From NCBI GenBank assembly GCA_963662715.1, contig OY759724.1, positions 3,293,845 to 3,357,844 on the forward strand: 64,000 nucleotides of DNA. The letters run 5' to 3'. Under the pieces are notes generated by a model. It was not told the DNA's origin, made no database searches, and saw only the letters and a list, made by a program, of their open reading frames with translations. This document shows, one piece after another, positions 1 through 40,771 of the stretch (positions are counted from its first letter, which is position 1; every line of letters starts with the position of its first letter). This DNA is from Candidatus Omnitrophota bacterium (GTDB taxonomy: Bacteria; Omnitrophota; Gorgyraeia; Zapsychrales; JANLHA01). The position numbers were made by a program, and so were the translations under genes.

Positions 1-941
1 GTCTCACCAATGCCTTCATTAACACATTCGGCGGCTTTATTTAACTTCATCTCTTTGAGTTTTTGATAAATCGCCTGGGCTTTGTTAAAGGCGGCTGACG
101 AACATTCTTGGGCATGAATAGCTTTTAGCATGGTGGCAACCGTCTTAATTTTTCCGTTTGGCACATAACGGAAAACATTTCTGTAGAAATGAACCATACA
201 TCTTTGCCATTTAGCCATGGGATATATTTCTTCTGCGGCATTGAGCAATCCCAGACATTTATCGGTGATCAATAATTGAATCCGGTTAAGTCCTCGTTGC
301 TTTAAATGTCTCATCAACGCTTGCCATCCCGTCTTGTCTTCCCGGGCCCCCTCTATAATCCCGATGATCTTTCGATATCCATGCCAATCAACTCCTATGG
401 CAATTAAGACGGATACATTGCTGACTTCACCACCCCAGCTCCGCTTTAAGCTAATCCCATCCATATAAACATACGGATATTCTTCATCTAAAGGCTCATG
501 TCTCCATTGATTGATCCGTTCATAGATCTTCTTGTTTACTCGGCTGACTGTGCTAGCCGATACTTTTGATCCCCATAATGCTTCAGTTATATCTTCAACT
601 CGTCTTACCGACACTCCTGCTAAATACATCTCCATCATCGCTTCTTCTACTGATATCTCTCGTCGTTTATATCGTTCAACTATGGCTGTCTCAAACGGTA
701 ATTTTCTTAGCTTCGGCATTCTTAATTTTACTTTTCCTACTCGTGTCTGCAATTGCCGCTCATAATAGCCCGCCCGTGTGTCCTTCCGGGCTTCTGTGCG
801 TTGATATCTCTCGGCTCCAACCAAGTGATCGGCTTCTGCATTCAATAAATTATTCAATGTCTCTTCCACGCTGCCCCGAATCTTCTCATCAAGTTTTTCT
901 TGGATTTTTTCTTCATTAACTGTAATAATAGTATTGTTCAT
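1..941 (-). mobile_element. IS256-family (mutator-type) transposase, partial; the 3' end runs off the left window edge
   Basis: The reverse-complement translation from the ATG at 941-939 (AGGAGG RBS just upstream) reads MNNTIITVNEEKIQEKLDEKIRGSVEETLNNLLNAEADHLVGAERYQRTEARKDTRAGYYERQLQTRVGKVKLRMPKLR...VHFYRNVF..., which matches the conserved IS256/MULE transposase N-terminal and DDE-region motifs. It is absent from the ORF track because no stop codon lies inside the window. Confidence 0.85.
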
Positions 942-1065
942 TGAGTCCTCCTTTTTGGTTAGGTTTGGTTGCCTAGTTATTATACCAATTGGAGGACTTT
1001 TTTTGTCCCTTCTGCAAATGTGCGAAAAATATTATACGTTATCCCAGGAGAAACATCTGTTGCGA

Positions 1066-1143
1066 GGACTGTCTGAGCGAAAAGGGTTCTCCCTCTCCGT
1101 GGAAAGCTAATTTATTTGCCCTGTCCCTTTTTGGGGACTGGCA
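1066..1143. repeat. Copy A of a two-module intergenic repeat: 'GAGCGAAAAGGGTTCTCCCTCTCCG' followed by the 'TTGCCCTGTCCC-N6-GGGGACTGGC' hairpin module
   Basis: Near-identical to the element at 11552-11616. The hairpin module also occurs at 10411-10437, and a half-copy at 12758-12776. All four sit at or just past the 3' end of a minus-strand gene. Confidence 0.5.
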
Positions 1144-1166
1144 CTTTCATTCTTTCATTTAACTGT

Positions 1167-1628
1167 TTACAGAAGGAATAAACATACAATCAATGACAAA
1201 ATATAGAATGTTAGGGAGACAATAAGAACAAAAAGAATATAAAAAATACTTCTAGAAATATTTTTAGCGAAAAATGATAACGTATTTAAAGGAATTAAAA
1301 ACAGTATACAACCTACCCCCCCTAATAATGCACCTTCTAAATGAGAAAAAGATATCAATCTACTACTTAAAGCCCCTAGAATAAATCCAACTACGGAACC
1401 CAACAATAATCTTTTAAGTATAAATTTAAAATAGCTATTCTTATCAGTTTCTAACATTTCACTTAAATTATGACTTAATACAATCCCTACGCCTAAAATA
1501 ACAAAAAATAAAATTTCACTAATATCTTTTCCAATAAATAAGATTGAATAGATACCCCCCAAAATAATAGCAAGGAGAATTAGTCGAAAATTAACGAATA
1601 AAAGATCTTTAAAAGATTTAATACTCAT
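1167..1628 (-). CDS. Small polytopic membrane protein (153 aa); candidate cognate immunity protein for the upstream RHS toxin
   Basis: The ORF begins 13 nt after the RHS stop, with an AGGAGA-like RBS. It is very hydrophobic (I/L/F-rich, about 4-5 predicted TM segments). An ORF directly downstream of the toxin is the canonical immunity position in RHS/polymorphic-toxin loci. Confidence 0.45.
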   Translation of the reverse strand: MSIKSFKDLLFVNFRLILLAIILGGIYSILFIGKDISEILFFVILGVGIVLSHNLSEMLETDKNSYFKFILKRLLLGSVVGFILGALSSRLISFSHLEGALLGGVGCILFLIPLNTLSFFAKNISRSIFYILFVLIVSLTFYILSLIVCLFLL

Positions 1629-1640
1629 ATACCATATCTC

Positions 1641-4600
1641 CTATTTTGGACAAATTTTATTTAATTCTTCCTTCGCCCTATTGTACTCCTCATTTCCAAT
1701 TTCACCGAGATCATCCCAAGGCAGATTTGGATTAATTTCTTTTAACTCCTCAAGCAATAAATCACCCTCTTCTTTTGACTTATCTAACATCTCATTTAAT
1801 TCTTTTAAATCTTGAGAAGTCAATTCACCTTTGTCGTAAATTTCTTTTGTTCTTTCTTCTCGCTTTTGAATATTTTTAATATCTTTTAATGTAAGTTTAT
1901 CAGCGATAGCTTCAGCCATTGCGTTTCTAGTTTTTTCACTTATTTTAGGTAATTTAGATTTAATTTGGTCAGAAATTTTATTCCTTGCAATTCTCCATAC
2001 TGGATTGGACTTCATCGGACCTCTAGGTACTAATCCAAAAGAATCAATCAAGTTAACTGGATCATCCAAAGCGTAAACATATAGATCCGCATCCCCATCG
2101 GCAAAGCCAATCGGGTCTTTGGCAGTCCAACGGCCGGTCTCGGGCGAATAATCTCTCATCCCAAAGCGAACGAGGCCAGTATCCCGGTCATGCAAACCCC
2201 CTGCGAACCCGAAAGGCACCTCAAAGGACGGGTCAGAATCAGCAATGATGTTGCCGAATGAATCATAGTCGATCTGCTTGATGATGGTTCCGGTTGAATC
2301 CGCAACAGCCCGCAAAGAGCCGACCTGGTCATACGTCAGGTAATACGTGGTCCCTGACTTGTTCATGCTAAGCGGCATGCGGCTGTCAGCATATTCAAAC
2401 CGCATCAGGAGATTATCCGAGCCATCATAAATAGCGAGTAATCGCGTTAACCCAAGCCATAAATACTTCTCGGTAATACTTCCATTGACTACCTTGGCGA
2501 TCCGCCGGCCTAAAGGATCATGTTGATAGGTGATGATATCGCCTGAAGGCAAGTCGACCTGCAGCAGTTCCCCTCTCGAAGAATAATCATAAGATGTTGT
2601 ATCCGCGCCATCAACCTTATTCCACAGGAAACCATCCTGATCATACTGATAGGTCGCTGTTCCTACGCTTAAGAGCTGATCCTCAGTATTATATGATAAA
2701 GAACGTCCCGCAATCCCCCTTAAACTGTTCATCTCATACGTCCGCACTCCCAGGGGATCAGTATCATTATAGCGGTATTCCTCTACCAGCACACCATCTT
2801 TTTCCACATGCGTCAACCGCCCCACCTCATCGTAAGTGTAAACATAATTTACGTTTACCCCAGCTACCGATTCCGACTTGGTCGCGATCTGTCCGTTATT
2901 ATCATGCGTCAGCGTCCAGGACGAAACGGCTGTCCCGCTCACCGACGACGCCTGACTGGCCACTTCCCCGTAACCGTTAAAGGTGCGCACCGTATCAAAT
3001 GTCCCGTTGCCCACCCCCTCCGGCAGACCGTTCGACGCATTATTCGTAATAATAAAGCCCGAAGCCTGCGTGAGGAGCCCGTCATCATCGTAGATGTAAT
3101 TGCTCGTCCCCCCGGCATAGGTGAAAGCGGTGAGGTTGAAATCATCGTTGTAAGTGTAAGACAAGGTTTGACTGACCGTTCCCAATAAAGTCTGGGAGGT
3201 GAGCAGGTCCCCGTCATAACCATAGAAGATCTGCTCCCCGCCTTTAGAGGTGGACTGCACCTGGCCCGATGCCAGGTAGCTCAGACTCACATGGCCTTCC
3301 GGGGTCTGAATCTCAGTGAGCTGCCCGCCGGTGTAAACATTCACGATCTGCGCGCCGGAAGGATAGGTGGTCTGCGTGAGCCGCCGGTCCCGGTCATACG
3401 TATAGGTCGTGGAACCGGAAAGCGGCGGGTCGTATTCTTCCGCGAGGTTAACGTTATTATATTGAAAACCATGGTCAATGCCTGACGGGTTGGTCAGCAC
3501 CGTCATATTGCCGTTGTTGTCATAATCATAATACAGGTCGGTACCGTCCGGCCGGTGCACCGCTGTGGTGCGGCCCAAGGCGTCGTACTCAAAGGTGGTC
3601 AGATGGTTTTCCGGGTCAAGGATCGAATAGACGTTGCCGTCAGCGTCATACTCAAATCTTGTCTGGCGCGTCCCGGTCTGCACGGTTTCAACCCGGCCCC
3701 GGGTATCATAGGTGTAACTTGTATCTAACAGCCCCGGCACGCTCACGCTACTGGTCAGCAAAGTTGCCGGATCATACGTGGTTGTCACCACCCGGCCTTC
3801 CGGGGACGTGGCCGTGCTCTGAGACGTTAACAGATCCTGCACCACGGCTGTCGTCTTTCCGTTGAGGGAAGCCGTGCGGGTAATACGGTCGGTATCCCCA
3901 TCGGAATTCGTATCTTCATAGAGCCGGTTATAAACCATCTGGGCGGTTAGCCCGGCCGGGGTGACGGTCGTTGCCTGCCGCGTATATTTAAAGCGGTATT
4001 TGGGATCATAATCTATAATATATTCCCGCTCGGTTTCATTCGGCTGGGTGACCTGGGTCGTGAAGCCGTCGGATGACCGGAAATACACCGTGGAATTCGT
4101 ACTGGATGACGTGGTCACGGTGGTCTGCGCCCCGCCGGCAACCTCCTGGTCAAGATAGGTTGTGGCATAGCCTTCAACCGTGGTCACTCCTGATTCCACA
4201 TCACCGCTGACCAAAACCTGCCGGGTAAAAGGATTCTGCTTTCCGGCCTGGTCTTCAGTGGTGTTTATCCGGCCGTCAGCATTAAACGTGTGAATAAAGA
4301 AATTGCCGTTAGGTTCGGTTTCCTGAGTCATCAAGCCGTTGTTGTACAAGAAATGATACGCTGTCGCATCCGGGTAGCTGATCTGGCTGAGCAGATAGCT
4401 GCTCGGGTTAACAGCCAGTTCTGTCCGTATGCCGTCCGGAGAAATAATGGCCGTCGGCACCCCTCCGGCGGTGCGTTCGACCGTGACCTGATTGCCGAAC
4501 CTATCGGTCACTGAAACCAGCCGGTCGCTGGCATCATAATTAAAAGTTTCCAAGACCATACCTGTATTCAGGTCCACCGTCTCTTTATGCCGGCCGTCGG

Positions 4601-7600
4601 CATAAAAAATATACCCCACGCCTTCTTCAATAAACTGATTATCGGTCGGGTCGGAAGAAAGGGCAAACGCCGTGCTTTGTGAAGCTTCGACCTTGCGGAC
4701 GCGCTTATTGTACCAGTCAGCGATATACACGCTGCCGCCGTCATCCACCGCCACGTCCTGGGCATAACTTATCTGGGCTTCGTTCGCCGGGCCGCCGTCC
4801 CCGCTGAACCCGCTCAGCCCGGTGCCGGTTATGGTCGTGATGATCCCGTTGGTATCGACTTTACGGACCACGGAAAAGTAAAGTTCGCCGATATACAAAT
4901 TTCCGTTGGTGTCCATAGCCAGACCGTTTGGATTCGGCAAGCCTGCGCTGGTGGCCGGGCCGCCGTCCCCGCTGGGTTCTATGATATCCCCGCCCTGCCA
5001 GATTTTTCCGGCCACGGTTGTGATAATACCGCTGGCCGCATCGACTTTACGGACCCGGCTGTAATCCGCGATATAAAAATTGTCCGAACTGTCTACGATG
5101 ACGTTTTTGGCATTGGTCAGAATAACGGACGCGGCCGGGTCTCCGTCATCATAATAAGGAAGGCCTCCTCCGGCAACAGTGGTGATGATCCCGCTGGTAT
5201 CGACTTTTCTTATCCGCAGGTTCCCTGAATCAGCGATATAAAGATTGCCCGCGCTGTCCACGGCAATGCCGGAAGGGGCATTGAGCTTCGCAGATGTGGC
5301 CGGGCCGTTATCCCCGCTGAACCCGACACTCCCGTTACCGGCTACAGTGGTGATAATCCCGCCGGTGTCGATCTTACGGATACAATTGTTCCCATTATCC
5401 GCGAAGTAAATGTTGCCCGTATTGTCCACGGTCAACCTGCGGGGATTGTTCAAACCGGCAGAGGTCGCCGGGCCGCCGTCCCCGGTGTAATCCGCGCTGC
5501 CGTTACCGGCAACATGGTAAATATATCCGTCCGGTTCGACTCTGAAAATACGGTTGGAATAATATAAGGCAATATAGAAATTACCGGAACTGTCCGTGGC
5601 CAGACCGGAGATATGGCTCATATCCCTGTTTACCGCCAGCGGATCTGCCCCGTTGCCGTTACCCGGATCCCCAGTCCCGGCAACCGTCGTGATAATCGTG
5701 CTCCCGGACTCAAGCTGACGGCCGTTGCCTTTATTGAGGATCCTCGTATCTTTAGGAGTAATGAACAGGTGATGGTGGTTGGATAAAGTCCAGCCTTCGG
5801 CAAGTTTGCTCGGTAAAGCGGCTATGTTATAAAGGGTCTGCATCTCCTCTGTCCAGGAGATGATTTCATTCCGGGCCGGAACTTCGGTGACGGTTGTGCC
5901 CGGAGTGCCGAAGGACGGCATGGTCGGGGTTGAGCCGAAACCGTAATAGATCGCGTCATACACAAAACCGACACGGATCGAAGCGGTCGGGGCCAAGACT
6001 CTTTGCCCTAAATAATCCAAACCGTCCCAGGAAAACACCGCCTGCTGGTCCGGCAAGGCCGGAAGCGTCTGTTCAAATAAACGTCCGCCCACTTCAACCT
6101 GGACAATAATTTCTTTTAAACTGGCCGGCACGGTGGAACCGCTGGCCGGAACGGTAATGACCGTGTGATACCCGCCCGTGCGGCTGGTGGCATAATGCAG
6201 GGTCAGGCCGGTCCCGGCAACAGGGATATCTTCATGATAAACCCGGCTGCGGCAAGAGACGTAAGAATCTTCAGAAACATCGCTTCTAACGGCATGAGCT
6301 TTACATTGATCTGTCTGCTGTTCGACATTAGAGCTTTTTCCGGAATTCGGGTCAGTCGAACCTTCCGGAGGGCCGGACGGATAATTGCAGTCCCAGGCCG
6401 AAAAATGAGGCACCTCAACCCGCCAGTATGTATCGCCGGGTGTGTATTCAGATGGGTCATCAAGTCCCGCAACTTCATCCGCATAATCTCCGTCACTGTC
6501 CAGATCATCCGGAAGAAAATCGCCGTCCATATCCAGGCTGTCAACAATACCGTCGCTGTTATCATCCAGCAGGGTCACCACCCTGCCGTTTTCTGAAGCG
6601 ATCCATTCCGCCTGGTCCGGGTCGTAATATCCGACCGGAACAATTTCCCCCACGTCAAACCCTAAAAAGTTATCGATCCAGGTGATAACCGGGTTCTCAA
6701 ACCGCACGTTGGCAACACCGTCCACGCTCAATTCCACACAATACGTGTAGGATGTGGTCGGCGGCAGGATCGCGGGCATGGATTCCGGGGTTTTAAACTC
6801 CGTGGCCCGGATGGTCATCGTCGAAAGAGCGAAAAGGTCATCGCCGTTTTCATCAACGGCAAAAGCCTGATTGTCGCCGGTCATCACCACAGTGGCTTTA
6901 CGGGTGCCGAACGTGTCGGTCACCGGGCTGCTTTCATGCAGCAACACGGTTTGTGCATTGCCGTCCAGGGTAAGTGTCGTGGCTTTTTGGTCTTCGGCTA
7001 ATAATACCGGGGTTTCAACAATAACCACATCGTTGATAGGCACCTCGACTTTACGGTACGCGGTTATCAGCCCCTGCTTTTGAAAAATCACGTTAAGAGT
7101 TGCGTCGCCTTCAACCGGCAGAGAATATTCGCCGCTGGTGTCGGTCTGTACTGTGCCGTATTCCGGATGACCGTCAATTGTGACCAGGACATCAGGAACA
7201 GGGTCGTCATAAATATCCAGCACCTGGCCTCTTATCACGGCAAAAGTATCCGGATCGTATTCTGCGATAGTGGCATCGTCCGGGACAAGCTGTTCATATT
7301 GCTGGCCGTAAGCCCCGTCCGGCTGAGAAGCAGGTTCCGACTGCACGGAAACCAGCACCTGCGCGCTGGCCGAGCCGTTAGGCCCGGTGGCCGTGACAGT
7401 ATACGTTGTCGTATGCTGGGGCGTCACTTCGAGTGTTCCGCTCACCCCGACAGCCCCCATATCCTGATCCATATACACGTCATAAGCATCTGTTGACGTC
7501 CAGGAAAGGGTTGTGGATTCTCCGGCCTGAATCACCGCCGGGTTGGCGGAAATTTCAATAGCGGGCCGTCCATCATCCACCAAAACTGTTACGGTATCTC

Positions 7601-9956
7601 TGGCCGTGCCTTCGGGCCCGGTCGCGGTAATGGTATAAGTCGTATCCGTGACCGGATAAACAGCCACAGCCCCGTTAGGATCTACTGCTCCGATTTCAGG
7701 TTCGATCGTACAAGTATCCGCATCCGTGGAAATCCAGTACAGGGTTGTAAACTCCCCGGCCTGAATCGCCGTAGGCTCCGCCTCAATGCTCACGGTCGGC
7801 GGAAGCGTGGTATATTCGGTGACGACATCAAAATTCGTGTCATGGTTCAGCCAGCCGTTGGCATCGCCATACTGAATATAATAATAGGCGATATCATTAT
7901 CAGCGATATCTCCGTAATCCGGGATACTAGTCCAGGCAAATGTCACTGTTATTGTATCCGTGCCGATCACGACTTCGCTGTCCCCAGCCTGCAAATTTAT
8001 GAATTCAGAGCCGTACCCGCCTTCCTTAATAAACCCCGTATCCTTATACCAGCTTAAGTATCCCCGGTTGGGATTGCCCGAATCATCCTGGTAATTGATC
8101 AGAATCGACACCCTCTCCATGGAATCCGGTTCCGGCACGTTAAACACCAAGGTCGCCTTCTGCACATCCGCACTATTGGCCAGCACGGTTTGTTTATCCA
8201 CAGTCAAAGAAGAAAGGCCGGCCCGCATATCCTGCACGTCAAAGTTCGTGTCATGGTTCAGCCAGCCGTTGGCATCGCCATACTGAATATAGTAATAGGC
8301 GATATCATTATCCGTTATGCCGCCGTAATCCGGCAGACTCCTCCAGGCAAACGTCACGGTTATTGTATCCGTGCCGGTCACGATTTCGCTTTCTGCTGTC
8401 TGCAAATCGATGTACTGAGAGCCGTAACCGCCTTCCTTAATAAATCCCGTATCCTTATACCAGCTTAAATACCCCCGGTTGGGATTGCCCGAATCATCCT
8501 GGTAATTGATCAGAATCGACACCCTCTCCATGGAATCCGGTTCCGGCACGTTAAACACCAAGGTCGCCTTCTGCACATCTGCACTATCAGCCAGCACGGT
8601 CTGTTTATCCACGGTCAGGGAGCCTAAACTTGCCCGCATGTCCTGCACGTCAAAGTTCGTGTCGTGGTTCAGCCAGCCGTTAGCGTCGCCATACTGAATA
8701 TAGTAATAGGCGATATCATTATCCGTTATGCCGCCGTAATCCGGCAGACTCCTCCAGGCAAACGTCACGGTTATTGTATCCGTGCCGGTCACGATTTCGC
8801 TTTCTGCTGTCTGCAAATCGATGTACTGAGAGCCGTAACCGCCTTCCTTAATAAATCCCGTATCCTTATACCAGCTTAAATACCCCCGGTTGGGATTGCC
8901 CGAATCATCCTGGTAATTGATCAGAATCGACACCCTCTCCATGGAATCCGGTTCCGGCACGTTAAACACCAAGGTCGCCTTCTGCACATCTGCACTATCA
9001 GCCAGCACGGTCTGTTTATCCACGGTCAGGGAGCCTAAACTTGCCCGCATGTCCTGCACGTCAAAATTCGTGTCATGGTTCAGCCAGCCGTTAGCATCGC
9101 CATACTGAATATAGTAATAGGCGATATCATTATCCGTTATGCCGCCGTAATCCGGCAGACTCCTCCAGGCAAACGTCACGGTTATTGTATCTGTACCGGT
9201 CACGACCTCGCTGTCCCCGGCCTGCAAATCGATGTACTGAGAACCGTAACCGCCTTCCTTAATAAATCCCGTATCCTTATACCAGCTTAAATACCCCCGG
9301 TTGGGATTGCCCGAATCATCCTGATAATTGATCAGAATCGACACCCTCTCCATGGAATCCGGTTCCGGCACGTTAAACACCAAAGTCGCCTTCTGCACAT
9401 CCGCACTATTGGCCAGCATGGTCTGTTTATCTACGGTCAGGGAACCTAAACTCGCCCGCATGTCCTGCACGTCAAAGTTCGTGTCATGGTTCAGCCAGCC
9501 GTTAGCGTCGCCATACTGAATATAGTAATAGGCGATATCATTATCCGTTATGCCGCCGTAATCCGGCAGACTCCTCCAGGCAAACGTCACGGTTATTGTA
9601 TCTGTACCGGTCACGACCTCGCTGTCCCCGGCCTGCAAATCTATAAATTCAGAGCCGTAACCGCCTTCCTTAATAAATCCCGTATCCTTATACCAGCTTA
9701 AATACCCCCGGTTGGGATTGCCCGAATCATCCTGGTAATTGATTAATATCGAAACCCTTTCGATTGTCTCGGGTTCGCTGGTGCTGAATTGCAAAGTCGC
9801 TGTCTGAAGGTCAGAATTATTAGCCAGCACCGTTGTTTTCCCGACAGTTAAAGACTCCAAGACCGCGGGATCTTCGGCAAAAACCGGAGAAGAAAAACAG
9901 GCGATTAATAATACGGCGGCTACTCCTTTGAGAATTTTTTTGCAGTGGCTGGACAT
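1641..9956 (-). CDS. Secreted RHS/YD-repeat (teneurin-like) polymorphic toxin, 2771 aa
   Basis: Domains read from the translation, N- to C-terminus: a Sec-type signal peptide (MSSHCKKILKGVAAVLLIACFSSPVFA); five tandem 137-aa repeats; two Ig-like domains; a CarboxypepD_reg-like domain; DxDGD Ca-binding-like acidic clusters; NHL-type beta-propeller repeats (…GNLYIADSGNLRIRKVDTSGIITTVAG…); many YD repeats (YDxxGRL/YxYDxxG); and the RHS core terminus RFGMRDYSPETGRWTAKDPIGFADGDADLYVYALDDPVNLIDSFGL. A ~135-aa charged C-terminal tip of unknown function follows. Confidence 0.9.
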   Translation of the reverse strand: MSSHCKKILKGVAAVLLIACFSSPVFAEDPAVLESLTVGKTTVLANNSDLQTATLQFSTSEPETIERVSILINYQDDSGNPNRGYLSWYKDTGFIKEGGYGSEFIDLQAGDSEVVTGTDTITVTFAWRSLPDYGGITDNDIAYYYIQYGDANGWLNHDTNFDVQDMRASLGSLTVDKQTMLANSADVQKATLVFNVPEPDSMERVSILINYQDDSGNPNRGYLSWYKDTGFIKEGGYGSQYIDLQAGDSEVVTGTDTITVTFAWRSLPDYGGITDNDIAYYYIQYGDANGWLNHDTNFDVQDMRASLGSLTVDKQTVLADSADVQKATLVFNVPEPDSMERVSILINYQDDSGNPNRGYLSWYKDTGFIKEGGYGSQYIDLQTAESEIVTGTDTITVTFAWRSLPDYGGITDNDIAYYYIQYGDANGWLNHDTNFDVQDMRASLGSLTVDKQTVLADSADVQKATLVFNVPEPDSMERVSILINYQDDSGNPNRGYLSWYKDTGFIKEGGYGSQYIDLQTAESEIVTGTDTITVTFAWRSLPDYGGITDNDIAYYYIQYGDANGWLNHDTNFDVQDMRAGLSSLTVDKQTVLANSADVQKATLVFNVPEPDSMERVSILINYQDDSGNPNRGYLSWYKDTGFIKEGGYGSEFINLQAGDSEVVIGTDTITVTFAWTSIPDYGDIADNDIAYYYIQYGDANGWLNHDTNFDVVTEYTTLPPTVSIEAEPTAIQAGEFTTLYWISTDADTCTIEPEIGAVDPNGAVAVYPVTDTTYTITATGPEGTARDTVTVLVDDGRPAIEISANPAVIQAGESTTLSWTSTDAYDVYMDQDMGAVGVSGTLEVTPQHTTTYTVTATGPNGSASAQVLVSVQSEPASQPDGAYGQQYEQLVPDDATIAEYDPDTFAVIRGQVLDIYDDPVPDVLVTIDGHPEYGTVQTDTSGEYSLPVEGDATLNVIFQKQGLITAYRKVEVPINDVVIVETPVLLAEDQKATTLTLDGNAQTVLLHESSPVTDTFGTRKATVVMTGDNQAFAVDENGDDLFALSTMTIRATEFKTPESMPAILPPTTSYTYCVELSVDGVANVRFENPVITWIDNFLGFDVGEIVPVGYYDPDQAEWIASENGRVVTLLDDNSDGIVDSLDMDGDFLPDDLDSDGDYADEVAGLDDPSEYTPGDTYWRVEVPHFSAWDCNYPSGPPEGSTDPNSGKSSNVEQQTDQCKAHAVRSDVSEDSYVSCRSRVYHEDIPVAGTGLTLHYATSRTGGYHTVITVPASGSTVPASLKEIIVQVEVGGRLFEQTLPALPDQQAVFSWDGLDYLGQRVLAPTASIRVGFVYDAIYYGFGSTPTMPSFGTPGTTVTEVPARNEIISWTEEMQTLYNIAALPSKLAEGWTLSNHHHLFITPKDTRILNKGNGRQLESGSTIITTVAGTGDPGNGNGADPLAVNRDMSHISGLATDSSGNFYIALYYSNRIFRVEPDGYIYHVAGNGSADYTGDGGPATSAGLNNPRRLTVDNTGNIYFADNGNNCIRKIDTGGIITTVAGNGSVGFSGDNGPATSAKLNAPSGIAVDSAGNLYIADSGNLRIRKVDTSGIITTVAGGGLPYYDDGDPAASVILTNAKNVIVDSSDNFYIADYSRVRKVDAASGIITTVAGKIWQGGDIIEPSGDGGPATSAGLPNPNGLAMDTNGNLYIGELYFSVVRKVDTNGIITTITGTGLSGFSGDGGPANEAQISYAQDVAVDDGGSVYIADWYNKRVRKVEASQSTAFALSSDPTDNQFIEEGVGYIFYADGRHKETVDLNTGMVLETFNYDASDRLVSVTDRFGNQVTVERTAGGVPTAIISPDGIRTELAVNPSSYLLSQISYPDATAYHFLYNNGLMTQETEPNGNFFIHTFNADGRINTTEDQAGKQNPFTRQVLVSGDVESGVTTVEGYATTYLDQEVAGGAQTTVTTSSSTNSTVYFRSSDGFTTQVTQPNETEREYIIDYDPKYRFKYTRQATTVTPAGLTAQMVYNRLYEDTNSDGDTDRITRTASLNGKTTAVVQDLLTSQSTATSPEGRVVTTTYDPATLLTSSVSVPGLLDTSYTYDTRGRVETVQTGTRQTRFEYDADGNVYSILDPENHLTTFEYDALGRTTAVHRPDGTDLYYDYDNNGNMTVLTNPSGIDHGFQYNNVNLAEEYDPPLSGSTTYTYDRDRRLTQTTYPSGAQIVNVYTGGQLTEIQTPEGHVSLSYLASGQVQSTSKGGEQIFYGYDGDLLTSQTLLGTVSQTLSYTYNDDFNLTAFTYAGGTSNYIYDDDGLLTQASGFIITNNASNGLPEGVGNGTFDTVRTFNGYGEVASQASSVSGTAVSSWTLTHDNNGQIATKSESVAGVNVNYVYTYDEVGRLTHVEKDGVLVEEYRYNDTDPLGVRTYEMNSLRGIAGRSLSYNTEDQLLSVGTATYQYDQDGFLWNKVDGADTTSYDYSSRGELLQVDLPSGDIITYQHDPLGRRIAKVVNGSITEKYLWLGLTRLLAIYDGSDNLLMRFEYADSRMPLSMNKSGTTYYLTYDQVGSLRAVADSTGTIIKQIDYDSFGNIIADSDPSFEVPFGFAGGLHDRDTGLVRFGMRDYSPETGRWTAKDPIGFADGDADLYVYALDDPVNLIDSFGLVPRGPMKSNPVWRIARNKISDQIKSKLPKISEKTRNAMAEAIADKLTLKDIKNIQKREERTKEIYDKGELTSQDLKELNEMLDKSKEEGDLLLEELKEINPNLPWDDLGEIGNEEYNRAKEELNKICPK
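7811..9866 (-). repeat. Five tandem near-identical 411-bp (137-aa) repeats encoding the N-terminal domain array of the RHS protein
   Basis: The protein repeats begin SLTVDKQTVLA...YLSWYKDTGFIKEGGYGSQYIDLQ...AWRSLPDYGGITDNDIAYYYIQYGDANGWLNHDTNFDVQDMRA, and copies 3 and 4 are identical at the protein level. Antisense ORFs in the track recur with exact 411-bp spacing (8095, 8506, 8917, 9328 and 8664, 9075, 9486). Confidence 0.85.
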
Positions 9957-10506: not shown

Positions 10507-11406
10507 TTATAGATAACCCAAATCTTTCAAAACAGGACCTGTAATAGAAACAATTTCCTCAATAGGTTTAGGATCAGAGTTCTTCCATTTTCCAATTCGA
10601 TTCTTGTTAGGAATCTCACACAATTGCTCCATATTTTTATAATCTCTCATCCCGACATGATCAAGCATTTTGGAAATGATCTCTTTTGGATTTTGACACA
10701 AATCCTCATATCGAAGGACCAAAACCCGCGTATGGTCTCTGTGCGCAATAAGCCGAGACGTACTCTCCTTCCAAAGAAGGGCTCCAAACATATTTTTTCT
10801 AGGAGGATTTTTAGCCTCTTTAGAATGAATGGAATCGAAAGATAATCCCTCATACTCTTTTATATCAATCTTATTAAAAAAACATTTCTTTTTCAATTTT
10901 GTAAACATATACCAATCCGCACGAAATAACAGACAAAATTTAAGATAACCAAGGATGTGAGGAAATTCACTAGCCGTTAGACATCGAGTCGGAACACCCA
11001 TCCCCAACCCCGAAAGAACAACATCCCGACTATCACGAACGATTCCGATAATCTGGCCACGAGGAAACAATTTAAGCATATACGGAATCATGTATGACAA
11101 GAAGGGCATCTTAAAACCCCACGGACGAGAAAAATCAAAGTATTGAGACAAAATTTTATAAGCTCTCTTGATTTCATTTTGAGTAGGACTCCGTAAACCT
11201 TCATGGCGAAGAAAGGCCTTTTGACATAATCGATTAAACTCTTTATTAGAAAAGTCGTTATTATCGGCTATTATAGCTTTTTTCCCACGACCAAAATCGA
11301 CCCCCCTCTTTTCAAAAATCTCAACCAGCATCCTCGTTCCCGCATGCCACATACCTGTGAGAATGATCGGCTTATCAAAAAATAAAAGTCTTTCTTCTTG
11401 AGCCAT
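10507..11406 (-). CDS. Sulfotransferase-family protein (299 aa)
   Basis: It carries a P-loop-like 5'-PSB motif (IILTGMWHAGTRML), a 3'-PB-like motif (IVRDSRDVV) and the C-terminal LVLRYEDLCQNP, which is typical of the Sulfotransfer_1/3 families. Confidence 0.5.
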   Translation of the reverse strand: MAQEERLLFFDKPIILTGMWHAGTRMLVEIFEKRGVDFGRGKKAIIADNNDFSNKEFNRLCQKAFLRHEGLRSPTQNEIKRAYKILSQYFDFSRPWGFKMPFLSYMIPYMLKLFPRGQIIGIVRDSRDVVLSGLGMGVPTRCLTASEFPHILGYLKFCLLFRADWYMFTKLKKKCFFNKIDIKEYEGLSFDSIHSKEAKNPPRKNMFGALLWKESTSRLIAHRDHTRVLVLRYEDLCQNPKEIISKMLDHVGMRDYKNMEQLCEIPNKNRIGKWKNSDPKPIEEIVSITGPVLKDLGYL

Positions 11407-15101: not shown

Positions 15102-15575
15102 TTAATTGAATAAAATAAAGGTAATGATTCCGCCCATGTATCCCAGGAAAACCGGGAAGCTCATTTTCCGGACATACCAGCCAAAGTCCATTTTCTCCAT
15201 GCCCATCACGACCACACCCGCCGCAGAGCCGATAACCAGCAAACTTCCCCCTGTCCCCACACAATAGGCAATGAGCTGCCAAAGCGGCGCGTCTTTGGGA
15301 TAAACGTTGACATCAAACATCCCCATGGTTGAAGCCGTTAAAGGGACATTATCCACCACAGAGGATGTGACACCCAGGAAAGCGACCATGACATTCTTGT
15401 TCCGGAACATTGTGTCCAGCACATGAGCGATTCGCAACAGGATGCCGGCTGAATCCAGAGCCGCAACGGTTAGAAGGATGCCTAAAAAAAACAGAAGACT
15501 CGAATAATCGACTTGTTTCAATATGCGCGGGACCTGAAGCCTGGCCTTCTTTTTATGGGCTTTGTCCGTATACAC
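15102..15575 (-). pseudogene. C-terminal fragment of a disrupted NhaD/ArsB-superfamily ion transporter gene
   Basis: The fragment reads ...VVDNVPLTASTMGMFDVNVYPKDAPLWQLIAYCVGTGGSLLVIGSAAGVVVMGMEKMDFGWYV... and is the apparent continuation of the N-terminal fragment at 18144-18911. The two are separated by about 2.6 kb that carries an IS1182 transposase and an orphan RHS tip cassette. Confidence 0.5.
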
Positions 15576-15960
15576 CGATAGTGTCGGAAAACCTATTGTA
15601 GAAACAAATCTGTACTCTTATACCGGAAATGACCCCGTAAATTGGATAGATCCTTTGGGTTTGTTGAAGAGGGATCATCGTTTCTGGGAGAATGTCAAAG
15701 AAGGGGTAATGAATAATCTTAAAAAGAAGTATGCTAAGTTTAAGAAAGAGAATCCCTGTGAAGAAGCTCCGCCAATTGCCGGGGAAGATTTGGAGAGCTC
15801 ATTAGATAAATTTGCAGAAGCTTTTGCCGATGAATTAACAGAGAAAGAATTCGGTTTCTTGGGCAGGGGCGTTGAAAAAAATAGTGATGCTGTTAAGGAA
15901 CGCTTAAAAATTAAATATCCTGATTGGCCATGGGAAGAATGGGACATAATTTTTAAATGA
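15562..15960 (+). CDS. Orphan RHS C-terminal fragment: residual core end plus alternative toxin tip (132 aa)
   Basis: It begins ...YTDSVGKPIVETNLYSYTGNDPVNWIDPLGL, which is the RHS core terminus (PxxxxDPxGL motif), followed by a ~100-aa charged tip. There is no upstream RHS body, and the ORF starts with TTG inside the transporter fragment. Confidence 0.6.
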   Translation: MSVYTDSVGKPIVETNLYSYTGNDPVNWIDPLGLLKRDHRFWENVKEGVMNNLKKKYAKFKKENPCEEAPPIAGEDLESSLDKFAEAFADELTEKEFGFLGRGVEKNSDAVKERLKIKYPDWPWEEWDIIFK

Positions 15961-16334
15961 GAAATAACCTGAGAGAGCACGTTCCAAGGCGGAAACTAAT
16001 ATTGGGATGTTTTATGGGGTTTTGCTTTGGTATTCTAATAATCGTTTGCGGGGATTTTGTTTCAAATATTCCGAATTATTCAAGCAGCTTTTTCCTGAAT
16101 TCAATTTATTGGGTATGTACCTATTTAGCCAGTGTGGCGGCAATACTGGCAAAGCTAATATTAGGAACATTCTTTAATAAATGGTACTCAGTGGTATTAA
16201 ATTTAATCGCATTGATGTATTTTTCAGTATTGGGAATGTGTTGTGTTGTTCTGTTTAGAAGGGGTAAAAAAATTTTTATATTTGTTTTCATTGCTCTTCT
16301 GGTCGTTCATGGAGCAGGTCTGTATTTATTCTGA
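15957..16334 (+). CDS. Small polytopic membrane protein (125 aa); candidate immunity protein for the orphan RHS tip
   Basis: It overlaps the orphan tip ORF by 4 nt and is hydrophobic with about 4 TM segments, the same architecture as the 1167-1628 ORF that follows the full-length RHS. Confidence 0.4.
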   Translation: MRNNLREHVPRRKLILGCFMGFCFGILIIVCGDFVSNIPNYSSSFFLNSIYWVCTYLASVAAILAKLILGTFFNKWYSVVLNLIALMYFSVLGMCCVVLFRRGKKIFIFVFIALLVVHGAGLYLF

Positions 16335-16448
16335 GATGTCCGTAATTTCAAAAAGGGATTTTCCTGTAAAATAATATATAAAACAATAATGTCGTCGAGA
16401 TTATGAAGTATAATAGAGGTGTCCGAATAAAAGAAAGGAGCCTCTTGA

Positions 16449-18044
16449 ATGTTAAAGAATCCCCAAAACCAAGCCTCATTTTTTGATGCTGAGTATATCT
16501 GCGAAGACTTAATCCCTGCCGATAGTTACTACCGCAAGTTCAGGGAAATAGTCTTCCCGCTCATGGATGAGTTGGATTTTGAATCCATGTATTGTCAGGA
16601 TAATGGCCGTCCGCCGATCTCGCCGAAGTTGTTGGCCATGGCGTTGCTGTTGCAATTCCATAAGAATTTGTCAGATCGGGGAATGGAGCGGGCATGCATG
16701 TATGATATTGAGATCAAGTATGCCTTGGGATTAAAACTCAACGAGCGACCGTTCGATCATTCAAGTCTGGGAGATTTTAGGAAGCGATTGTATGAGCATG
16801 GACAAAGCAAGAGGGTTTTTGACCAGATACTCAACAAGTTGATTGAGGCAGATTTGATAGAGCGTGATGAAATTCAGCGGATTGATGCGACGCATATGAT
16901 TGCTGATATTGCGATACCGACGGTGGTGGCGTTGGTCAAGAAAGGCATTCGTGAAATATTAAAACCGTTGAAAGGCCAAAAGCCCGAGTTATACGCTAAG
17001 GTTATAAAAAATATCGATGTCGAAGAATATACGCGGGAAAAAGTCAACCAGGCGGATGAAGGACGGCTGGATATTGAGAAACGGCAAAGAAAGCTGGTCA
17101 AGGTCGTTACCGATGCGCGAAACCTTTTGAGAGAAGTCGAGGATGTTAACATGAGTCGTGGATTGCGAAAGCGGATTGAATTGCTTCAGAGGATACTGCA
17201 GGAGAACGTTAAGGAAGCCGACGAGGGCAAGATTGAGGAACGCAAATATAAAGATAAACCGCCGGACTTGCTGGTAAGTCCGATTGACGAAGACGCGCGG
17301 TATGGCGCAAAGTCGGATACAAAAAGATTTATGGGATACAAGGCAAATGTGACAGAGAGTGTGAAAAATCGGTTGATCACAAATATTGAAGTGATGCCCG
17401 GAAACAGACGGGATGGTGAGCCGACAGTGAAGATGGTGGTGGAGCAGAAACTGAACGGATTAGTCCCTAAGAAGCTGGTAGGAGACGCGGCGTACGCGGA
17501 CGGGATGTATAGAAAATTGCTCAAAGATAATGAAACCCTGCTGGTCGCACCGTTAAGAAAAGTTAATGAAAGTGCACAAAAAATTTACCCCAAAAGCATG
17601 TTTTATTACGATGAGAAAACAGGAACAGTAACGTGTCCGCAAGGCGTAAAAACAAAAACATGTTTTGAAGATCGTCGCCATGGGTTAAAGCAATTTCATT
17701 TTCCGATGAGCGCGTGCAATCAGTGTGGCGTTCAGAAAGAGTGTACAAAAGCAAAAGAAGGACGCCGGACGATAGGGATCAGTATCTTTAATAAAGAGCT
17801 GCGCGAAGCCGAAGTATACAACGAAACAGAACAATTCAAAAAGGACATGAAGCTGCGTCCACCGATTGAAGGAAAGCTGTCGGAGTTGACGCGGTATCAC
17901 GGCTTAAGGCGCGCACGATATCGAAGGTTATATAAAGTGCGGCTTCAGGGTTATTTTACAGCGGCTGCGGTGAACATCAAGCGGTGGTTCAAGCTGATTA
18001 TCGAAGGAATAGCAAGGCACCCGGAGGTTGCGATGGGCTTTTAG
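16449..18044 (+). mobile_element. IS1182-family (IS5 group) transposase, 531 aa, apparently intact
   Basis: The N-terminal GRPPISPKLLAMALLLQFHKNLSDRGMERACMYDIEIKYALGL...FDHSSLGDFRKRL and the C-terminal YHGLRRARYRRLYKVRLQGYFTAAAVNIKRW are hallmark IS1182-family motifs. Confidence 0.8.
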
Positions 18045-18143
18045 AAGATTGAAGGGCGTAAAATAAGTGCGCCCCAAAAATAATGCTCTTTGAAACTGGA
18101 CCAAAAGTCCAACGGCGGAAAAATACCGGGTTTTCAGACGGTA

Positions 18144-18911
18144 TCACACCCATAATAACCCTAATCCCAATAAAACGCTCAGATAAGGCGGCAGATCGAA
18201 AACGGCTTTTAAAACAGGGACCAGCAATAAAGCACCCGTCCCTATCAAAAAGACCGTATTGGTTTCAACGGAGCTGACGCACCGCACTGGCATAAGCCCC
18301 TTGGCGTTTTTGCCCTTGATCCGGAAAGAGAAATACAACAAAGGAAGCAATACGCTCACGAGACTGGAAAAAAACACTTTTTGAATCACCGCAGCAGATG
18401 TTAGATATCCTTTTATCCACAACATTGTTGTTGTCACATCCCCTATAGGCGTCCACGCCCCGCCGGCATTCGCCGCGACAATAATCATGCTGGCGAAGGT
18501 CAGGCGCTCTGCTGTTTTCGGCAGGAATTGATGCAGAAGCGTCATCATAATGATAGACGTTGTCACAAAAGCGGAAAGGAAGAACGTCATGAACGTGGTC
18601 AGCCAAAGCAGGGACAAATGGCTCCTGGCCTGAATCAGGCGGGAAATAACGCAAAAGCCGTGATAAGAATCAATAATTTCCACGATCGTCATCACCCCCA
18701 TCAAGAAAAAGAATATCTGTGCGATATCCGAGACATGGTCATTCAGCTGCTGGAGCACCACGGCATCATGATGCCAGCTGTCGATTAAAACAATGCTCCA
18801 GCAAAAGAAAGCGAGCAGTATCGCGACGGCAGATTTATTCACTTCAAACTTCTGTTCGAAAGAAATAAAAACATAGCCGCCGATAAAAACAATTAAGAGG
18901 ATGATATCCAT
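18144..18911 (-). pseudogene. N-terminal fragment (255 aa) of the same disrupted NhaD/ArsB-superfamily transporter gene
   Basis: The fragment is polytopic and contains ...ANAGGAWTPIGDVTTTMLW... . It ends with a stop codon immediately before the inserted segment. Confidence 0.5.
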
Positions 18912-27616: not shown

Positions 27617-29851
27617 TTAGGGTTTTATCATGCGCTCCCAGACATTCGTTTCTTCCTCTTCTTCCGCTTCTTCCGACGCATCATCCTGTAAAGCTTTTAA
27701 TCCTTTTCTGACCGGTCTGGAACTCTTTTCCTTGGATGATTTCTTCTTGCTGGAAGTCTTTTTAGACTTCGTCTGAGATTCCTCGCTTGCTTTGTCTTCC
27801 GATCCCCAGAACTGCCTCCACAAGGTGTACAAGTCATCCAAACGGAAACCTTTGGCTTTACGGCTGTTTAACAATTTATCAAAATCCTTTGTATGTTCCT
27901 TAATCGGCTGGATATACGCCGGGGGTGTCGGTTGCGGCGTGGGTGTCCCCCGGGGAGATTCTTTTCCCTCCTGAGTTTCTTCACCGCCTCCCGTGCCTCT
28001 TCCGCGGGCGTCTTCGTCGTTACCCCCGCCCTCTCCGCCGGAACCGCTCCCGCTTTCCTGCGCGCCTTCCCCCTCGCCTTCGCCAGCGCCCTGCCCTTCT
28101 CCCCGGGCTCCCTCGCCTTCGCCTCCGCCTTGAGACTCGTCACTCTGATCCCCCACGCCTTGAGATTCGCCGTCACCTCCCTGAACGTCTCCACTCCCCT
28201 CGCCTTCGCCTTCCCCGCCGCCTTGCCCTTCACCTTCTCCGGACCCGCTTCCCGCTCCGCTGCCTTCCCCGGCCCCTGTCCCTTCACCGCCGCTGTCTCC
28301 TTCTCCTTCGCCGGATGTATCACCCTGCCCTCCGGCATCCCCTCCGCCGTCCATGGAAATATCACTTCCCCCGTCGCCGGCCCCTCCCCCGGAACCGTCA
28401 GCCCCTCCGCCGTCTCCCTGCCCGCCGCCTGATCCATCCTGCCCGCCGGAACCTTCACCCGAACTTCCGGCACCGCTTCCCGCTCCGGCCCCCTGCCCGC
28501 TCCCGGCGCCGTCGCCGGAACTGGACCCGCCTCCTCCGTCACCCTGCCCGGCACCCGTACCGCCCTGCCCTCCGGAAGACCCCTGCCCCTGCCCTGCCCC
28601 GGAACCGCCCGCCGATGAACCAGCACCGCCTCCGCCGGGCCCCTGACCGCCCTGCCCGGCGCCGCCATCACCGGTACCGGCGCCCTGGCCGCTGCCGGTG
28701 CCGCTGCCGAGACCTGATCCGGCCCCTTCTCCGCCGTCACCGGAGCCGCTTTGCTGCGAATCACCTCCGCCGGTCGTCCCTTTCCCCTCTCCGCCGGCTC
28801 CCTGCCCGCCGCCATCGCCCTGCCCCTGGGCATTTCCGCTCTGCCCTCCGGCGCCCTGGCCGTCGTTCTGTCCCTGCCCCTGGGAGTCTGCCGAGCCGCT
28901 GCCTCCCCCTTGCGCCGAACCGTCTTCTGAACCTCCGTCCTCCGATTCATTTCCTTCGGTCTTCTGGGCCTGTCCTTCGGCACCCTCCCCTTCCGGGGAC
29001 GCGCCGCCCTCCTGCGCCTGTCCCTGCGTTTCTGTCTCCTGCCCTTTTTGACCGGCAACATCATCATCCGCCGAGGAAGCTCCGTCCTTTGTTTCCTGTC
29101 CGGGAATATCTCCTCCGTCTTTTCCCTCCTGCCCGTCCGAACCTTCGCCTTTCCCGTCTCCGTCAGAATCAGACCCGCCCTCTCCCGAGCCCGCCCCCTT
29201 GCCTTTGGCCTCTCCGTCTCCCGGCGCCCCGTCTTCCGCGGTCCTGTCCGCCCCGGCCGAAAAATCAATATCATCTTCCGAAAATTCCACACTGCCGATC
29301 GTCTTGGGATCAATAATCAATTTCGCGACCTTAAAAGCGGCGGTGACTCCGTCGGCCGAAGCTTTCTGTCCGGAAATGCTCATTTTGACAATCTTTAACA
29401 AATTCGTCGTCGTGTCGATCTTGTACATAAAACTGACCATATCCTCCAGCCGGCCGGAACATTCCATGTTGGCATAATATTCAACATACCCTTTTTTCTG
29501 GGTCATATCCGAAGAGATCAGTTTGATAAGATTGATATTCGCTTCTGACGCTAAATTTTCAATCGTCTGCAAAAAGGCAGCAATGATCTCTTCTTCCGAC
29601 TCCGGCGTTTTCTCCAGATAAATGCTGTATTCCTGCTCTTCCTGCAGGATCTTACTTTCATACGAGAGAAACCGGGAACTGTTTTTAATCCCGATCATCT
29701 TTTCTTTTGTTTCTGTATCGATAGCGTGTTTCTTGCTCGTATACGGGCGGAAAACAAGCCCGTCAAACAAAGCCAGGACAGCCACTCCGACGGCAATATA
29801 AAAGATTTTTCTTTCCTGCTCAGACAATTTGCTGTAAAAATTCTGAAACAA
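27617..29851 (-). CDS. GspM-like T2SS inner-membrane component (N-terminal ~190 aa) with a ~500-aa Gly/Ser/Glu/Asp-rich low-complexity insert and a Lys-rich C-terminus, 744 aa
   Basis: A short cytoplasmic N-terminus, a single TM segment (IFYIAVGVAVLALFDGLVF) and a periplasmic domain of GspM/PilO size lie immediately downstream of the GspL-like gene. These are followed by GxGxGEGEG... low complexity. Confidence 0.4.
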   Translation of the reverse strand: MFQNFYSKLSEQERKIFYIAVGVAVLALFDGLVFRPYTSKKHAIDTETKEKMIGIKNSSRFLSYESKILQEEQEYSIYLEKTPESEEEIIAAFLQTIENLASEANINLIKLISSDMTQKKGYVEYYANMECSGRLEDMVSFMYKIDTTTNLLKIVKMSISGQKASADGVTAAFKVAKLIIDPKTIGSVEFSEDDIDFSAGADRTAEDGAPGDGEAKGKGAGSGEGGSDSDGDGKGEGSDGQEGKDGGDIPGQETKDGASSADDDVAGQKGQETETQGQAQEGGASPEGEGAEGQAQKTEGNESEDGGSEDGSAQGGGSGSADSQGQGQNDGQGAGGQSGNAQGQGDGGGQGAGGEGKGTTGGGDSQQSGSGDGGEGAGSGLGSGTGSGQGAGTGDGGAGQGGQGPGGGGAGSSAGGSGAGQGQGSSGGQGGTGAGQGDGGGGSSSGDGAGSGQGAGAGSGAGSSGEGSGGQDGSGGGQGDGGGADGSGGGAGDGGSDISMDGGGDAGGQGDTSGEGEGDSGGEGTGAGEGSGAGSGSGEGEGQGGGEGEGEGSGDVQGGDGESQGVGDQSDESQGGGEGEGARGEGQGAGEGEGEGAQESGSGSGGEGGGNDEDARGRGTGGGEETQEGKESPRGTPTPQPTPPAYIQPIKEHTKDFDKLLNSRKAKGFRLDDLYTLWRQFWGSEDKASEESQTKSKKTSSKKKSSKEKSSRPVRKGLKALQDDASEEAEEEEETNVWERMIKP
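27784..29269 (-). repeat. GC-rich low-complexity coding tract (imperfect GGx/GAx/GSx codon repeats) inside the GspM-like gene
   Basis: The translation is dominated by G, S, E, D and A with no regular unit. The opposite strand gives Pro/Arg-rich pseudo-ORFs. Confidence 0.6.

Positions 29852-38370: not shown

Positions 38371-40771
<2,401 letters not shown>

Follow-up and report, generated by a model that had tools for sequence, protein, structure and literature searches.

A 64,000-nucleotide (nt) stretch of the genome of a Candidatus Omnitrophota bacterium (GenBank assembly GCA_963662715.1, contig OY759724.1, positions 3,293,845 to 3,357,844), referred to here as the window, harbors on its minus strand, at 1641..9956, a single open reading frame (ORF) of 2771 amino acids (aa) with an ATG start that, to judge from its sequence, encodes an intact bacterial teneurin-like protein (TLP). 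From the N- to the C-terminus the protein comprises a signal peptide, five repeats of 137 aa, two Ig-like units, a TTR-like domain, a TIP-equivalent region, an FN-plug, an NHL propeller, a YD-shell, an RHS core and a C-terminal tip (Table 1). A second ORF, preceded by a GGAG ribosome-binding site, starts 12 nt past the TLP stop codon and encodes a membrane protein of 153 aa that is a candidate immunity protein for the tip. Both genes had been proposed in an initial annotation of this DNA, the first as a secreted full-length ORF, and both are present as described. Read as a whole, the locus is probably a two-gene TLP toxin/immunity operon, in which the scaffold is ordinary for its class and only the cassette of tip and immunity gene is new.

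A teneurin scaffold with private N-terminal repeats

Bacterial TLPs are rare but widespread: a survey counted 139 genomes with such a protein, spread over six phyla (Raoelijaona et al., Nat Commun 2026, PMC13018210). The hallmark of the class is an invariant superfold of FN-plug, NHL propeller and YD-shell, accompanied by N-terminal adhesion modules that vary and by a TIP in 96% of the proteins; an RHS-type autoproteolytic site and a polymorphic C-terminal domain (CTD) of ~15 kDa, concealed in the shell, complete the architecture (PMC13018210). The protease motif consists of a conserved Arg and two Asp ~20-24 residues apart (PxxxxDPxGL), and nearly every TLP has an immunity gene directly downstream, with immunity proven experimentally for one pair (PMC13018210).

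All three domains of the superfold are present in the window protein, in order and with TTR and TIP upstream. Its best sequence matches in the PDB are two entries named 'Teneurin-like protein' (9ifo_A, E 2.8e-262; 9pt5_A, E 2.6e-260), whose construct lengths (2144 and 2237 residues) and numbering are those of the Bacillus inaquosorum protein BiTLP (PMC13018210), and aa 905-2642 are colinear with residues 400-2144 of 9ifo_A. Animal teneurins follow, with E-values of up to 2.4e-84, and the shells of type VI secretion system (T6SS) Rhs proteins and of Tc toxins rank lower. For the region of TTR, TIP and FN-plug, phmmer matched aa 903-1352 to residues 401-834 of 9ifo_A with an E-value of 5.4e-71 (aligned aa 903-1338); the TIP was identified by alignment to BiTLP, not by a separate TIP profile. 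NHL and 'Pizza' propellers of known structure match at aa 1414-1589. The protein thus displays every sequence-level hallmark of the class and is almost certainly a bacterial TLP.

Much of the initial annotation survives this comparison. The designation as a teneurin-like RHS polymorphic toxin is borne out by the match to a solved TLP and by the teneurin-specific Pfam families, and the NHL, YD-shell and RHS core that it listed, together with RHS repeats, all score above their thresholds. Its domain list omitted the FN-plug and the TIP-equivalent region, and the CarboxypepD_reg-like domain that it contained has to be given up, reaching only 19.9 bits against a cut-off of 32.2 where the teneurin TTR family (PF25020) is the better assignment. 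Two Ig-like domains had also been claimed; two units of ~85 aa can indeed be made out, but the only Pfam match to them, Big_12, is sub-threshold (E 0.009).

The aspartyl-protease motif expected of an RHS core is recovered on re-alignment against residues 2085-2145 of 9pt5_A. R2601 (within MRDY), D2614 (KDPIG) and D2637 (IDSFGL) align to R2103, D2116 and D2140 of BiTLP, and cleavage is predicted by the same alignment between L2642 and V2643. In the FN-plug, C1218 and the site E1229-D1230/S1231 are equivalent to C719 and the N-terminal autocleavage site E722-G723/S724 of BiTLP. A cysteine of the BiTLP CTD forms a disulfide with C719 (PMC13018210); a corresponding bond between C1218 and C2769 of the window protein would be speculation by analogy.

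The signal peptide offers two readings. Cleavage after VFA27 satisfies the -3/-1 rule, and the residues LIAC17-20 resemble a lipobox, fitting its four positions; the PROSITE pattern PS51257, applied by hand, fails at K10. Since K10 sits where PS51257 forbids charged residues, cleavage by signal peptidase I after VFA27 is favored over a lipoprotein signal as the most likely reading, with lipidation as the possible alternative.

The five repeats of 137 aa, noted before and confirmed here, correspond to a tandem array in the DNA (7828..9758, period 411, 4.7 copies, 94% matches by TRF), the copies of which are 79-98% identical in pairwise DNA comparison. The repeat has no Pfam match. A k-mer-seeded homology search with one repeat returned nothing from an index that lacked this genome's own TLP, and the repeat was found neither in viral contigs nor in any related locus compared. 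An AF2 single-sequence model of the repeat unit is a beta-sandwich of low confidence (pLDDT 61.6), for which Foldseek gave only weak Ig-V-like matches (E of at least 0.02, TM 0.3-0.4), as for a generic beta-sandwich. Most simply, the repeats are an adhesin or spacer module that was recently amplified.

Table 1. Features of the TLP gene and of the two genes downstream of it (positions in the window; residues of the encoded 2771-aa protein)
Feature	Position	Strand	Residues	Basis and remarks
Signal peptide	9876..9956	-	1-27	MSSHCKKILKGVAAVLLIACFSSPVFA, predicted cleavage before ED; Sec layout judged by inspection of the translation
Five tandem 137-aa repeats	7806..9860	-	33-717	beta-rich module, no assigned family
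Two Ig-like (BIG) units	7257..7805	-	~718-900	two similar ~85-aa units visible in the translation
Teneurin TTR-like domain	7011..7253	-	902-982	PF25020 (TTR_TEN1-4), E 3.4e-12, 46.6 bits vs cut-off 27
TIP-equivalent region	6312..7010	-	983-1215	aligns between TTR and FN-plug of BiTLP
FN-plug	5757..6311	-	~1216-1400	PF24329 at aa 1270-1335, 28.0 bits vs cut-off 27.8
NHL beta-propeller	4857..5729	-	~1410-1700	PF25021 TEN_NHL, E 9.6e-36; PF01436 NHL, E 7.5e-24
YD-shell	2268..4616	-	1781-2563	PF25023 TEN_YD-shell, E 7e-38 over aa 1781-2614; PF05593 RHS_repeat, E 1.4e-31; TIGR01643 also matches
RHS-associated core (aspartyl autoprotease plug)	2031..2267	-	2564-2642	TIGR03696 (NCBIfam), 67.8 bits vs cut-off 32.5
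C-terminal tip (CTD)	1644..2030	-	2643-2771	129 aa, ~15 kDa, directly after ...IDSFGL2642
Candidate cognate immunity gene	1167..1628	-		153-aa integral membrane protein, ~5 transmembrane helices by hydropathy
IS256/Mutator-family transposase gene	3..941	-		begins 225 nt beyond the immunity gene, truncated by the left window end; PF00872, E 3e-89; six-frame translation

The C-terminal tip and its downstream membrane protein

Among species-representative genomes the closest scaffolds belong to a Syntrophales and a Nitrospirae metagenome-assembled genome (MAG), each 48% identical to the window protein, and both diverge from it wholly just past the (D)PxGL motif of the core. One of their tips has no known family and the other is weakly YkuD-like, and each is followed by a different signal-peptide protein. 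Such divergence of the tip past the core is the expected behavior of a polymorphic toxin. In the Syntrophales MAG (locus L006, 920..8127 of DATESZ010000001.1) this closest TLP scaffold is broken up into two ORFs that overlap, 920..4387 and 4333..8127, which represent either a frameshifted pseudogene or an assembly error.

The window tip had been described as a charged extension of 135 aa behind the ...DSFGL motif; charge and position are as stated, and the length is 129 aa. This size agrees with that of the average CTD and is compatible with the BiTLP cavity of ~44,000 cubic angstroms (PMC13018210). In nucleotide composition the tip resembles the gene behind it rather than the scaffold that carries it, with GC contents at third codon positions of 0.23 for the tip and 0.19 for the downstream ORF, compared with 0.61 for the scaffold. 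The step in GC content is located at nt ~2040, only a few codons from the predicted cleavage site; the first nucleotide of the tip is nt 2030. The first third of the tip is basic and the remainder acidic; the tip has no His and a single Cys, C2769. Its AF2 model is an all-alpha bundle of five helices (pLDDT 84.9, pTM 0.76).

That the tip is not recognizable, as the initial annotation put it, holds against all collections searched. It has no Pfam match, and when each family member was compared with Pfam at E <= 10 no meaningful common family emerged. A profile of four tip sequences found nothing better than E 0.29 among PDB sequences, and Foldseek searches with the tip model reached E-values of 1.6 in the PDB and 0.69 in BFVD at best. 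The k-mer-seeded homology search, with the same index as for the repeat, returned nothing for the tip, nor did a scan of viral contigs or a scan of genome contigs with the tip alignment. The tip fits none of the CTD fold classes of the published TLP survey (PMC13018210), and a search of the supplementary files of that paper for its motifs, for the length 2771 and for '1-153' had no success, which is a weak check given a gapped, partial sequence file and a CTD list machine-read from PDF. A colicin-type or other known pore-forming domain was considered for the tip and rejected, there being neither a hydrophobic hairpin or transmembrane (TM) segment nor a match in Pfam, PDB or Foldseek searches.

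Relatives of the tip were sought in 1.84 billion representative proteins by a full HMMER scan, and in two contig collections. The HMMER scan returned the window protein itself and only two other proteins, P0004 (E 1e-6) and P0005 (E 7e-4). Together with a Logan contig reached via the immunity protein and two JGI contigs, these hits place tip relatives on only four other contigs (loci L001-L005, of which L003 and L005 carry near-identical copies). Locus L001 preserves the last 50 residues of a tip homologue, at 86% identity, the upstream part being lost at the contig end, followed by a 155-aa protein that is 73% identical to the 153-aa protein of the window. The DNA of the two loci is 80% similar and this similarity ends at the immunity stop codon, which therefore marks the 3' end of the cassette. 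In L002 an orphan fragment (P0004), 30% identical to the tip, comes after an RHS core, with a tyrosine recombinase gene nearby, and is followed by the start of a hydrophobic ORF (MNIKKDGYDIYAVSIISVLFG...). The homologue in L004, ~26% identical, comes after an RHS core ending in VDPLGL and precedes a 97-aa hydrophobic ORF, with an IS3-type transposase gene on the opposite strand 25 nt further on. In L005 and L003 the homologue is likewise ~26% identical; an RHS core ending in DPLGL stands before it, as seen in L005, and a 154-aa hydrophobic ORF, complete in L005, behind it.

Wherever upstream sequence is present (L002, L004 and L005), the tip homologue is the immediate continuation of an RHS core with the ending D(I/P)xGL, and in the window as well as in L001-L005 the next ORF begins 8-17 nt downstream and encodes a hydrophobic membrane protein each time. 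Complete relatives of this protein have 154-155 aa, and the five-TM hydropathy profile of the 154-aa protein of L005 superimposes on that of the window's 153-aa protein. The co-conservation of tip and downstream ORF postulated by the initial annotation is thus seen on all four other contigs with a tip relative. The tip represents a very rare fold-orphan family, each known member of which has a small hydrophobic membrane protein as its partner, with five TM helices where that protein is complete. Invariant in this family are N2651, W2654, P2670, K2675, M2680-A-E2682, A2685-D2686, K2739, L2745-P-W-D2748 and N2759. P0005 had come into question as a stand-alone toxin, an interpretation that was rejected once the same sequence was seen fused to an RHS core in L004 and L005.

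At L002 (1..2579 of ENA ERZ27258955 k141_80350), the orphan fragment of RHS core and tip has 260 aa and begins inside shell sequence. About 1 kb upstream of it lie a 104-aa ORF and the tyrosine recombinase gene (Phage_integrase, E 1.8e-44), an arrangement which suggests that elements bearing a recombinase carry the cassette along. The IS256 transposase gene next to the window's immunity gene is context for cassette mobility and lies outside the toxin system.

As to the 153-aa protein, the positive-inside tally counts 8 K/R inside and 1 outside, and the topology favored on this sequence basis is N-in/C-out. In the published list of 'immunity' proteins encoded downstream of TLPs, many entries are small and multi-TM, none of them characterized in that paper (PMC13018210, Supplementary Data 6); examples are found in Syntrophobacter fumaroxidans, Desulfurivibrio alkaliphilus, Thioalkalivibrio nitratireducens and Desulfobotulus pelophilus. 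The 153-aa protein has no significant similarity to the membrane-type proteins of that list. It does show a weak Pfam match to Phage_holin_3_2 (E 0.035, 15 bits vs a cut-off of 25), and a small polytopic protein with such a match could be a holin-like or export accessory protein that aids release of the TLP or its cargo. We consider this highly improbable: the match lies below threshold, the charged C-terminal tail typical of holins is absent and the TLP already has a Sec signal. Moreover, the occurrence of the ORF tracks the tip rather than the scaffold, as its foreign composition and the unrelated downstream genes at the 48%-identical scaffolds indicate.

Proposed function of tip and membrane protein

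We propose the following mechanism for the system. The 2771-aa protein would be exported by Sec and its N-terminal modules (the five 137-aa repeats, the two Ig-like units, TTR and TIP) would keep it on the cell surface or outside it. FN-plug, NHL propeller and YD-shell would build a closed cocoon within which the RHS-core aspartyl protease, through R2601, D2614 and D2637, would cut after L2642, and the 129-aa CTD would then be free within the shell until its release onto a neighboring cell. By analogy with BiTLP a second cut, between D1230 and S1231 of the FN-plug, is likely. The tip would be the toxic cargo and the 153-aa five-helix protein of the inner membrane its immunity protein, and we read the pair as an AT-rich cassette of foreign origin that was joined to the scaffold by recombination, precisely where cleavage is predicted. 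Because the tip follows an RHS core and every tip relative has a small hydrophobic membrane ORF right behind it, we regard it as likely that tip and 153-aa protein form a toxin/immunity pair. What the sequences show is class membership, the intact catalytic residues, the break in composition and the co-occurrence of tip and membrane protein, whereas toxicity, surface display, the cut in the FN-plug and the membrane target are inferred.

A more distant scenario is that the tip is a non-toxic cargo, or a signal by which kin are recognized or cells communicate, with the membrane protein as its receptor or anchor. The survey of the class keeps a communication role possible, and E. coli was inhibited by only 3 of the 9 (text) or 10 (figure legend) CTDs tested (PMC13018210); a tip devoid of an enzymatic signature would suit such a role as well. 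However, strict pairing with a private downstream gene, orphan fragments of RHS core and tip beside an integrase or an insertion sequence (L002, L004) and foreign composition are the classic signature of polymorphic toxin/immunity systems, which renders a signaling cargo improbable.

If the tip is a toxin, the question arises where it acts. Its strict pairing with polytopic membrane proteins, together with the precedents of the BiTLP CTD and of Tse5-CT/Tsi5, points to the cytoplasmic membrane, at or in which the tip might depolarize, permeabilize or attack a membrane-embedded target, rather than serve as a cytosolic nuclease or NADase. The BiTLP CTD permeabilizes E. coli from the periplasm only (PMC13018210), and Tse5-CT, for which no enzymatic function is predicted, forms pores at the cytoplasmic membrane and is neutralized by the integral inner-membrane protein Tsi5 (PMC9637101, PMC10684867). 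A membrane-directed action is a tentative proposal, in our estimate somewhat short of an even chance.

The main rival is a toxin that hits a soluble cytoplasmic target, in which case the five-TM protein might block or replace an inner-membrane entry route, or capture the emerging tip on its basic cytoplasmic loops. The hydrophilic character of the tip and its predicted globular helical bundle are compatible with such a target; the invariant polar residues E2682, D2686, D2748, K2675, K2739 and N2759 could form an active site, and the larger loops of the immunity protein are predicted to be cytoplasmic. Yet the tip has no His and no recognizable nuclease, deaminase, ADP-ribosyltransferase or other enzymatic motif, nor a family or fold match. 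Immunity proteins of polymorphic toxins that act in the cytoplasm are normally soluble and cytoplasmic themselves. The single immunity protein tested in the survey of TLPs is soluble (PMC13018210). Hence we deem a cytoplasmic target rather unlikely.

Several observations weigh against a membrane-directed toxin/immunity operon as outlined. AF2 predicts the tip as a compact soluble bundle, and the tip is strongly hydrophilic, with a maximal 19-residue Kyte-Doolittle mean of 0.02 and a net charge of -1 from 26 K/R and 27 D/E; it possesses neither the hydrophobic hairpin of colicin-type pore formers nor the TM segment of the BiTLP CTD, and no homology marks it as toxic. The 153-aa protein is predicted to show almost nothing to the periplasm. 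The tip family is documented by four short metagenomic contigs, of which two are near-identical, and the 153-aa protein has no significant sequence similarity to the 154-aa proteins of the distant loci (BLASTP E = 1); the presumed homology of these proteins rests on position, size and hydropathy. In the C-terminal protease, the second DPxG motif reads DSFG (PVNLIDSFGL), with Ser replacing Pro as the sole deviation; one tip relative deviates similarly (YDIDGL). Finally, the delivery route of TLPs is not established in the literature (PMC13018210).

Since the tip lacks a hydrophobic element, is predicted to be a soluble bundle and is paired with an immunity protein almost without periplasmic exposure, a simple pore former is disfavored, and the same lack of predicted exposure renders simple periplasmic capture of a soluble toxin awkward. 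A further scenario, albeit an unlikely one at present, is that the tip and its five-TM partner constitute a previously undescribed toxin/immunity family, in which a fully hydrophilic, all-helical cargo of ~15 kDa is neutralized by a polytopic protein that exposes almost nothing outside the bilayer. If so, the tip would act at the cytoplasmic membrane in a novel way, for instance by attacking a lipid-linked or membrane-embedded target with its invariant Trp, Asp and Glu; alternatively, the immunity protein would block an entry pathway. In that case the 137-aa repeats might represent a novel module for targeting to the surface.

Bacterial TLPs are the rare ancestors of the animal teneurin receptors, and the class has already been described structurally and functionally in 2026 (PMC13018210), such that the new element here is the tip family with its membrane partner. 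The locus adds an intact TLP with a cargo outside the reported fold classes and with a polytopic membrane protein as its putative immunity partner. Multi-TM downstream genes recur in the published TLP list, and the pair bears on the question of whether TLP cargo directed at membranes forms a branch of its own, recognizable by immunity proteins embedded in the membrane.

Genomic surroundings and comparison with known systems

The neighbors of the TLP gene include genes for a sulfotransferase, a transaldolase, a split transketolase and tRNA-Lys. The sulfotransferase gene (10507..11406, minus strand) lies directly upstream, and a gene for an STT3-type oligosaccharyltransferase homologue of 852 aa (22380..24938, plus strand) is found 12 kb away; either enzyme could modify surface proteins. 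Between them, in the region 15102..18911, a CitMHS-family transporter gene on the minus strand is split (15102..15575 and 18144..18911) by an insertion bearing a DDE transposase gene (DDE_Tnp_1_6/DUF772; 16449..18044, plus strand). At a distance of ~20 kb from the TLP gene, a type II secretion/type IV pilus-like cluster (27617..38337, minus strand) encodes a GspE-type ATPase with MshEN and PilZ, GspF, GspG, pseudopilins, GspK and a PilM/PilN fusion, as well as a Pro-rich PilO-like protein of 744 aa (GC 61%) and an embedded Peptidase_MA gene. No secretin was recognized in this cluster, which could provide an outer-membrane route for the TLP or for a giant repeat protein encoded further on.

This giant protein of 6144 aa is the product of an ORF at 45511..63945 (minus strand), separated from the secretion cluster by genes for F/N-type ATP synthase subunits (alpha/beta-like, gamma and delta/b; 38371..43992, minus strand). 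It is made up almost entirely of ~450 tandem copies of a 13-residue unit with the consensus SDAGINWxDIDVL, a period of 39 nt in the DNA, and the extreme GC skew (~-0.5) over 46-64 kb is due to this ORF. The protein contains 24 stretches that match Pfam Lysostaphin_N and finishes in a non-repetitive, acidic helical tail. Its start, MTTAGINW..., shows no evident signal peptide.

Two other classes of RHS protein were considered for the TLP and rejected. A T6SS-delivered Rhs effector is at odds with an N-terminus made of a Sec signal and repeats, and Pfam scans of the larger ORFs in the window, which covered all but a few of those with at least 120 aa, revealed no PAAR, VgrG, Hcp or Tss family, in line with the initial annotation, which had likewise noted the absence of type VI secretion from this DNA. 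A Tc toxin BC subunit would not account for a plug and propeller whose best match is teneurin and not TcB, and the window scans produced no TcA-like ORF.

Of the known systems, BiTLP (PDB 9ifo and 9pt5; PMC13018210) is the closest. The two proteins are colinear from the BIG/Ig domains through TTR, TIP, FN-plug, NHL propeller, YD-shell and RHS core to a CTD of ~15 kDa, and they share the residues of the C-terminal protease, the Cys/Ser site of the FN-plug, the Sec signal and a private gene directly downstream. They differ in the five 137-aa repeats, which were found in no other protein or locus searched, in the Ser that takes the place of Pro in the second protease motif of the window protein (DSFG) and in their CTDs, which are unrelated, that of the window being hydrophilic and all-helical and that of BiTLP hydrophobic with a TM segment.

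Tse5/Tsi5 of Pseudomonas aeruginosa (PMC9637101, PMC10684867; PDB 8cp6) resembles the window pair in its YD/RHS shell around a C-terminal domain, which is self-cleaved in Tse5 and predicted to be so here, and in a homologous RHS core. Unlike the window protein, with its Sec signal, teneurin FN-plug and NHL propeller, Tse5 relies on VgrG4 and type VI delivery via a PAAR-like N-terminus; moreover, Tsi5 has 2 TM regions compared to ~5 in the 153-aa protein, and the tips are without sequence similarity.

In the BC components of Tc toxins (TcdB2-TccC3, YenB/YenC2), a YD-shell cocoon, a beta-propeller and the aspartyl autoprotease of an RHS core likewise surround a hypervariable C-terminal toxin, but Tc toxins require a TcA pentamer for translocation and are directed at eukaryotic targets, and the propeller and plug of the window protein are of the teneurin type. 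Metazoan teneurins (Ten1-4, Ten-m), finally, share the superfold of FN-plug, NHL propeller and YD-shell with the window protein, yet the DPxG protease motif is missing from these type II membrane receptors, which possess EGF repeats and whose C-terminus, not being cleaved, emerges from the shell as ABD/Tox-GHH (PMC13018210).

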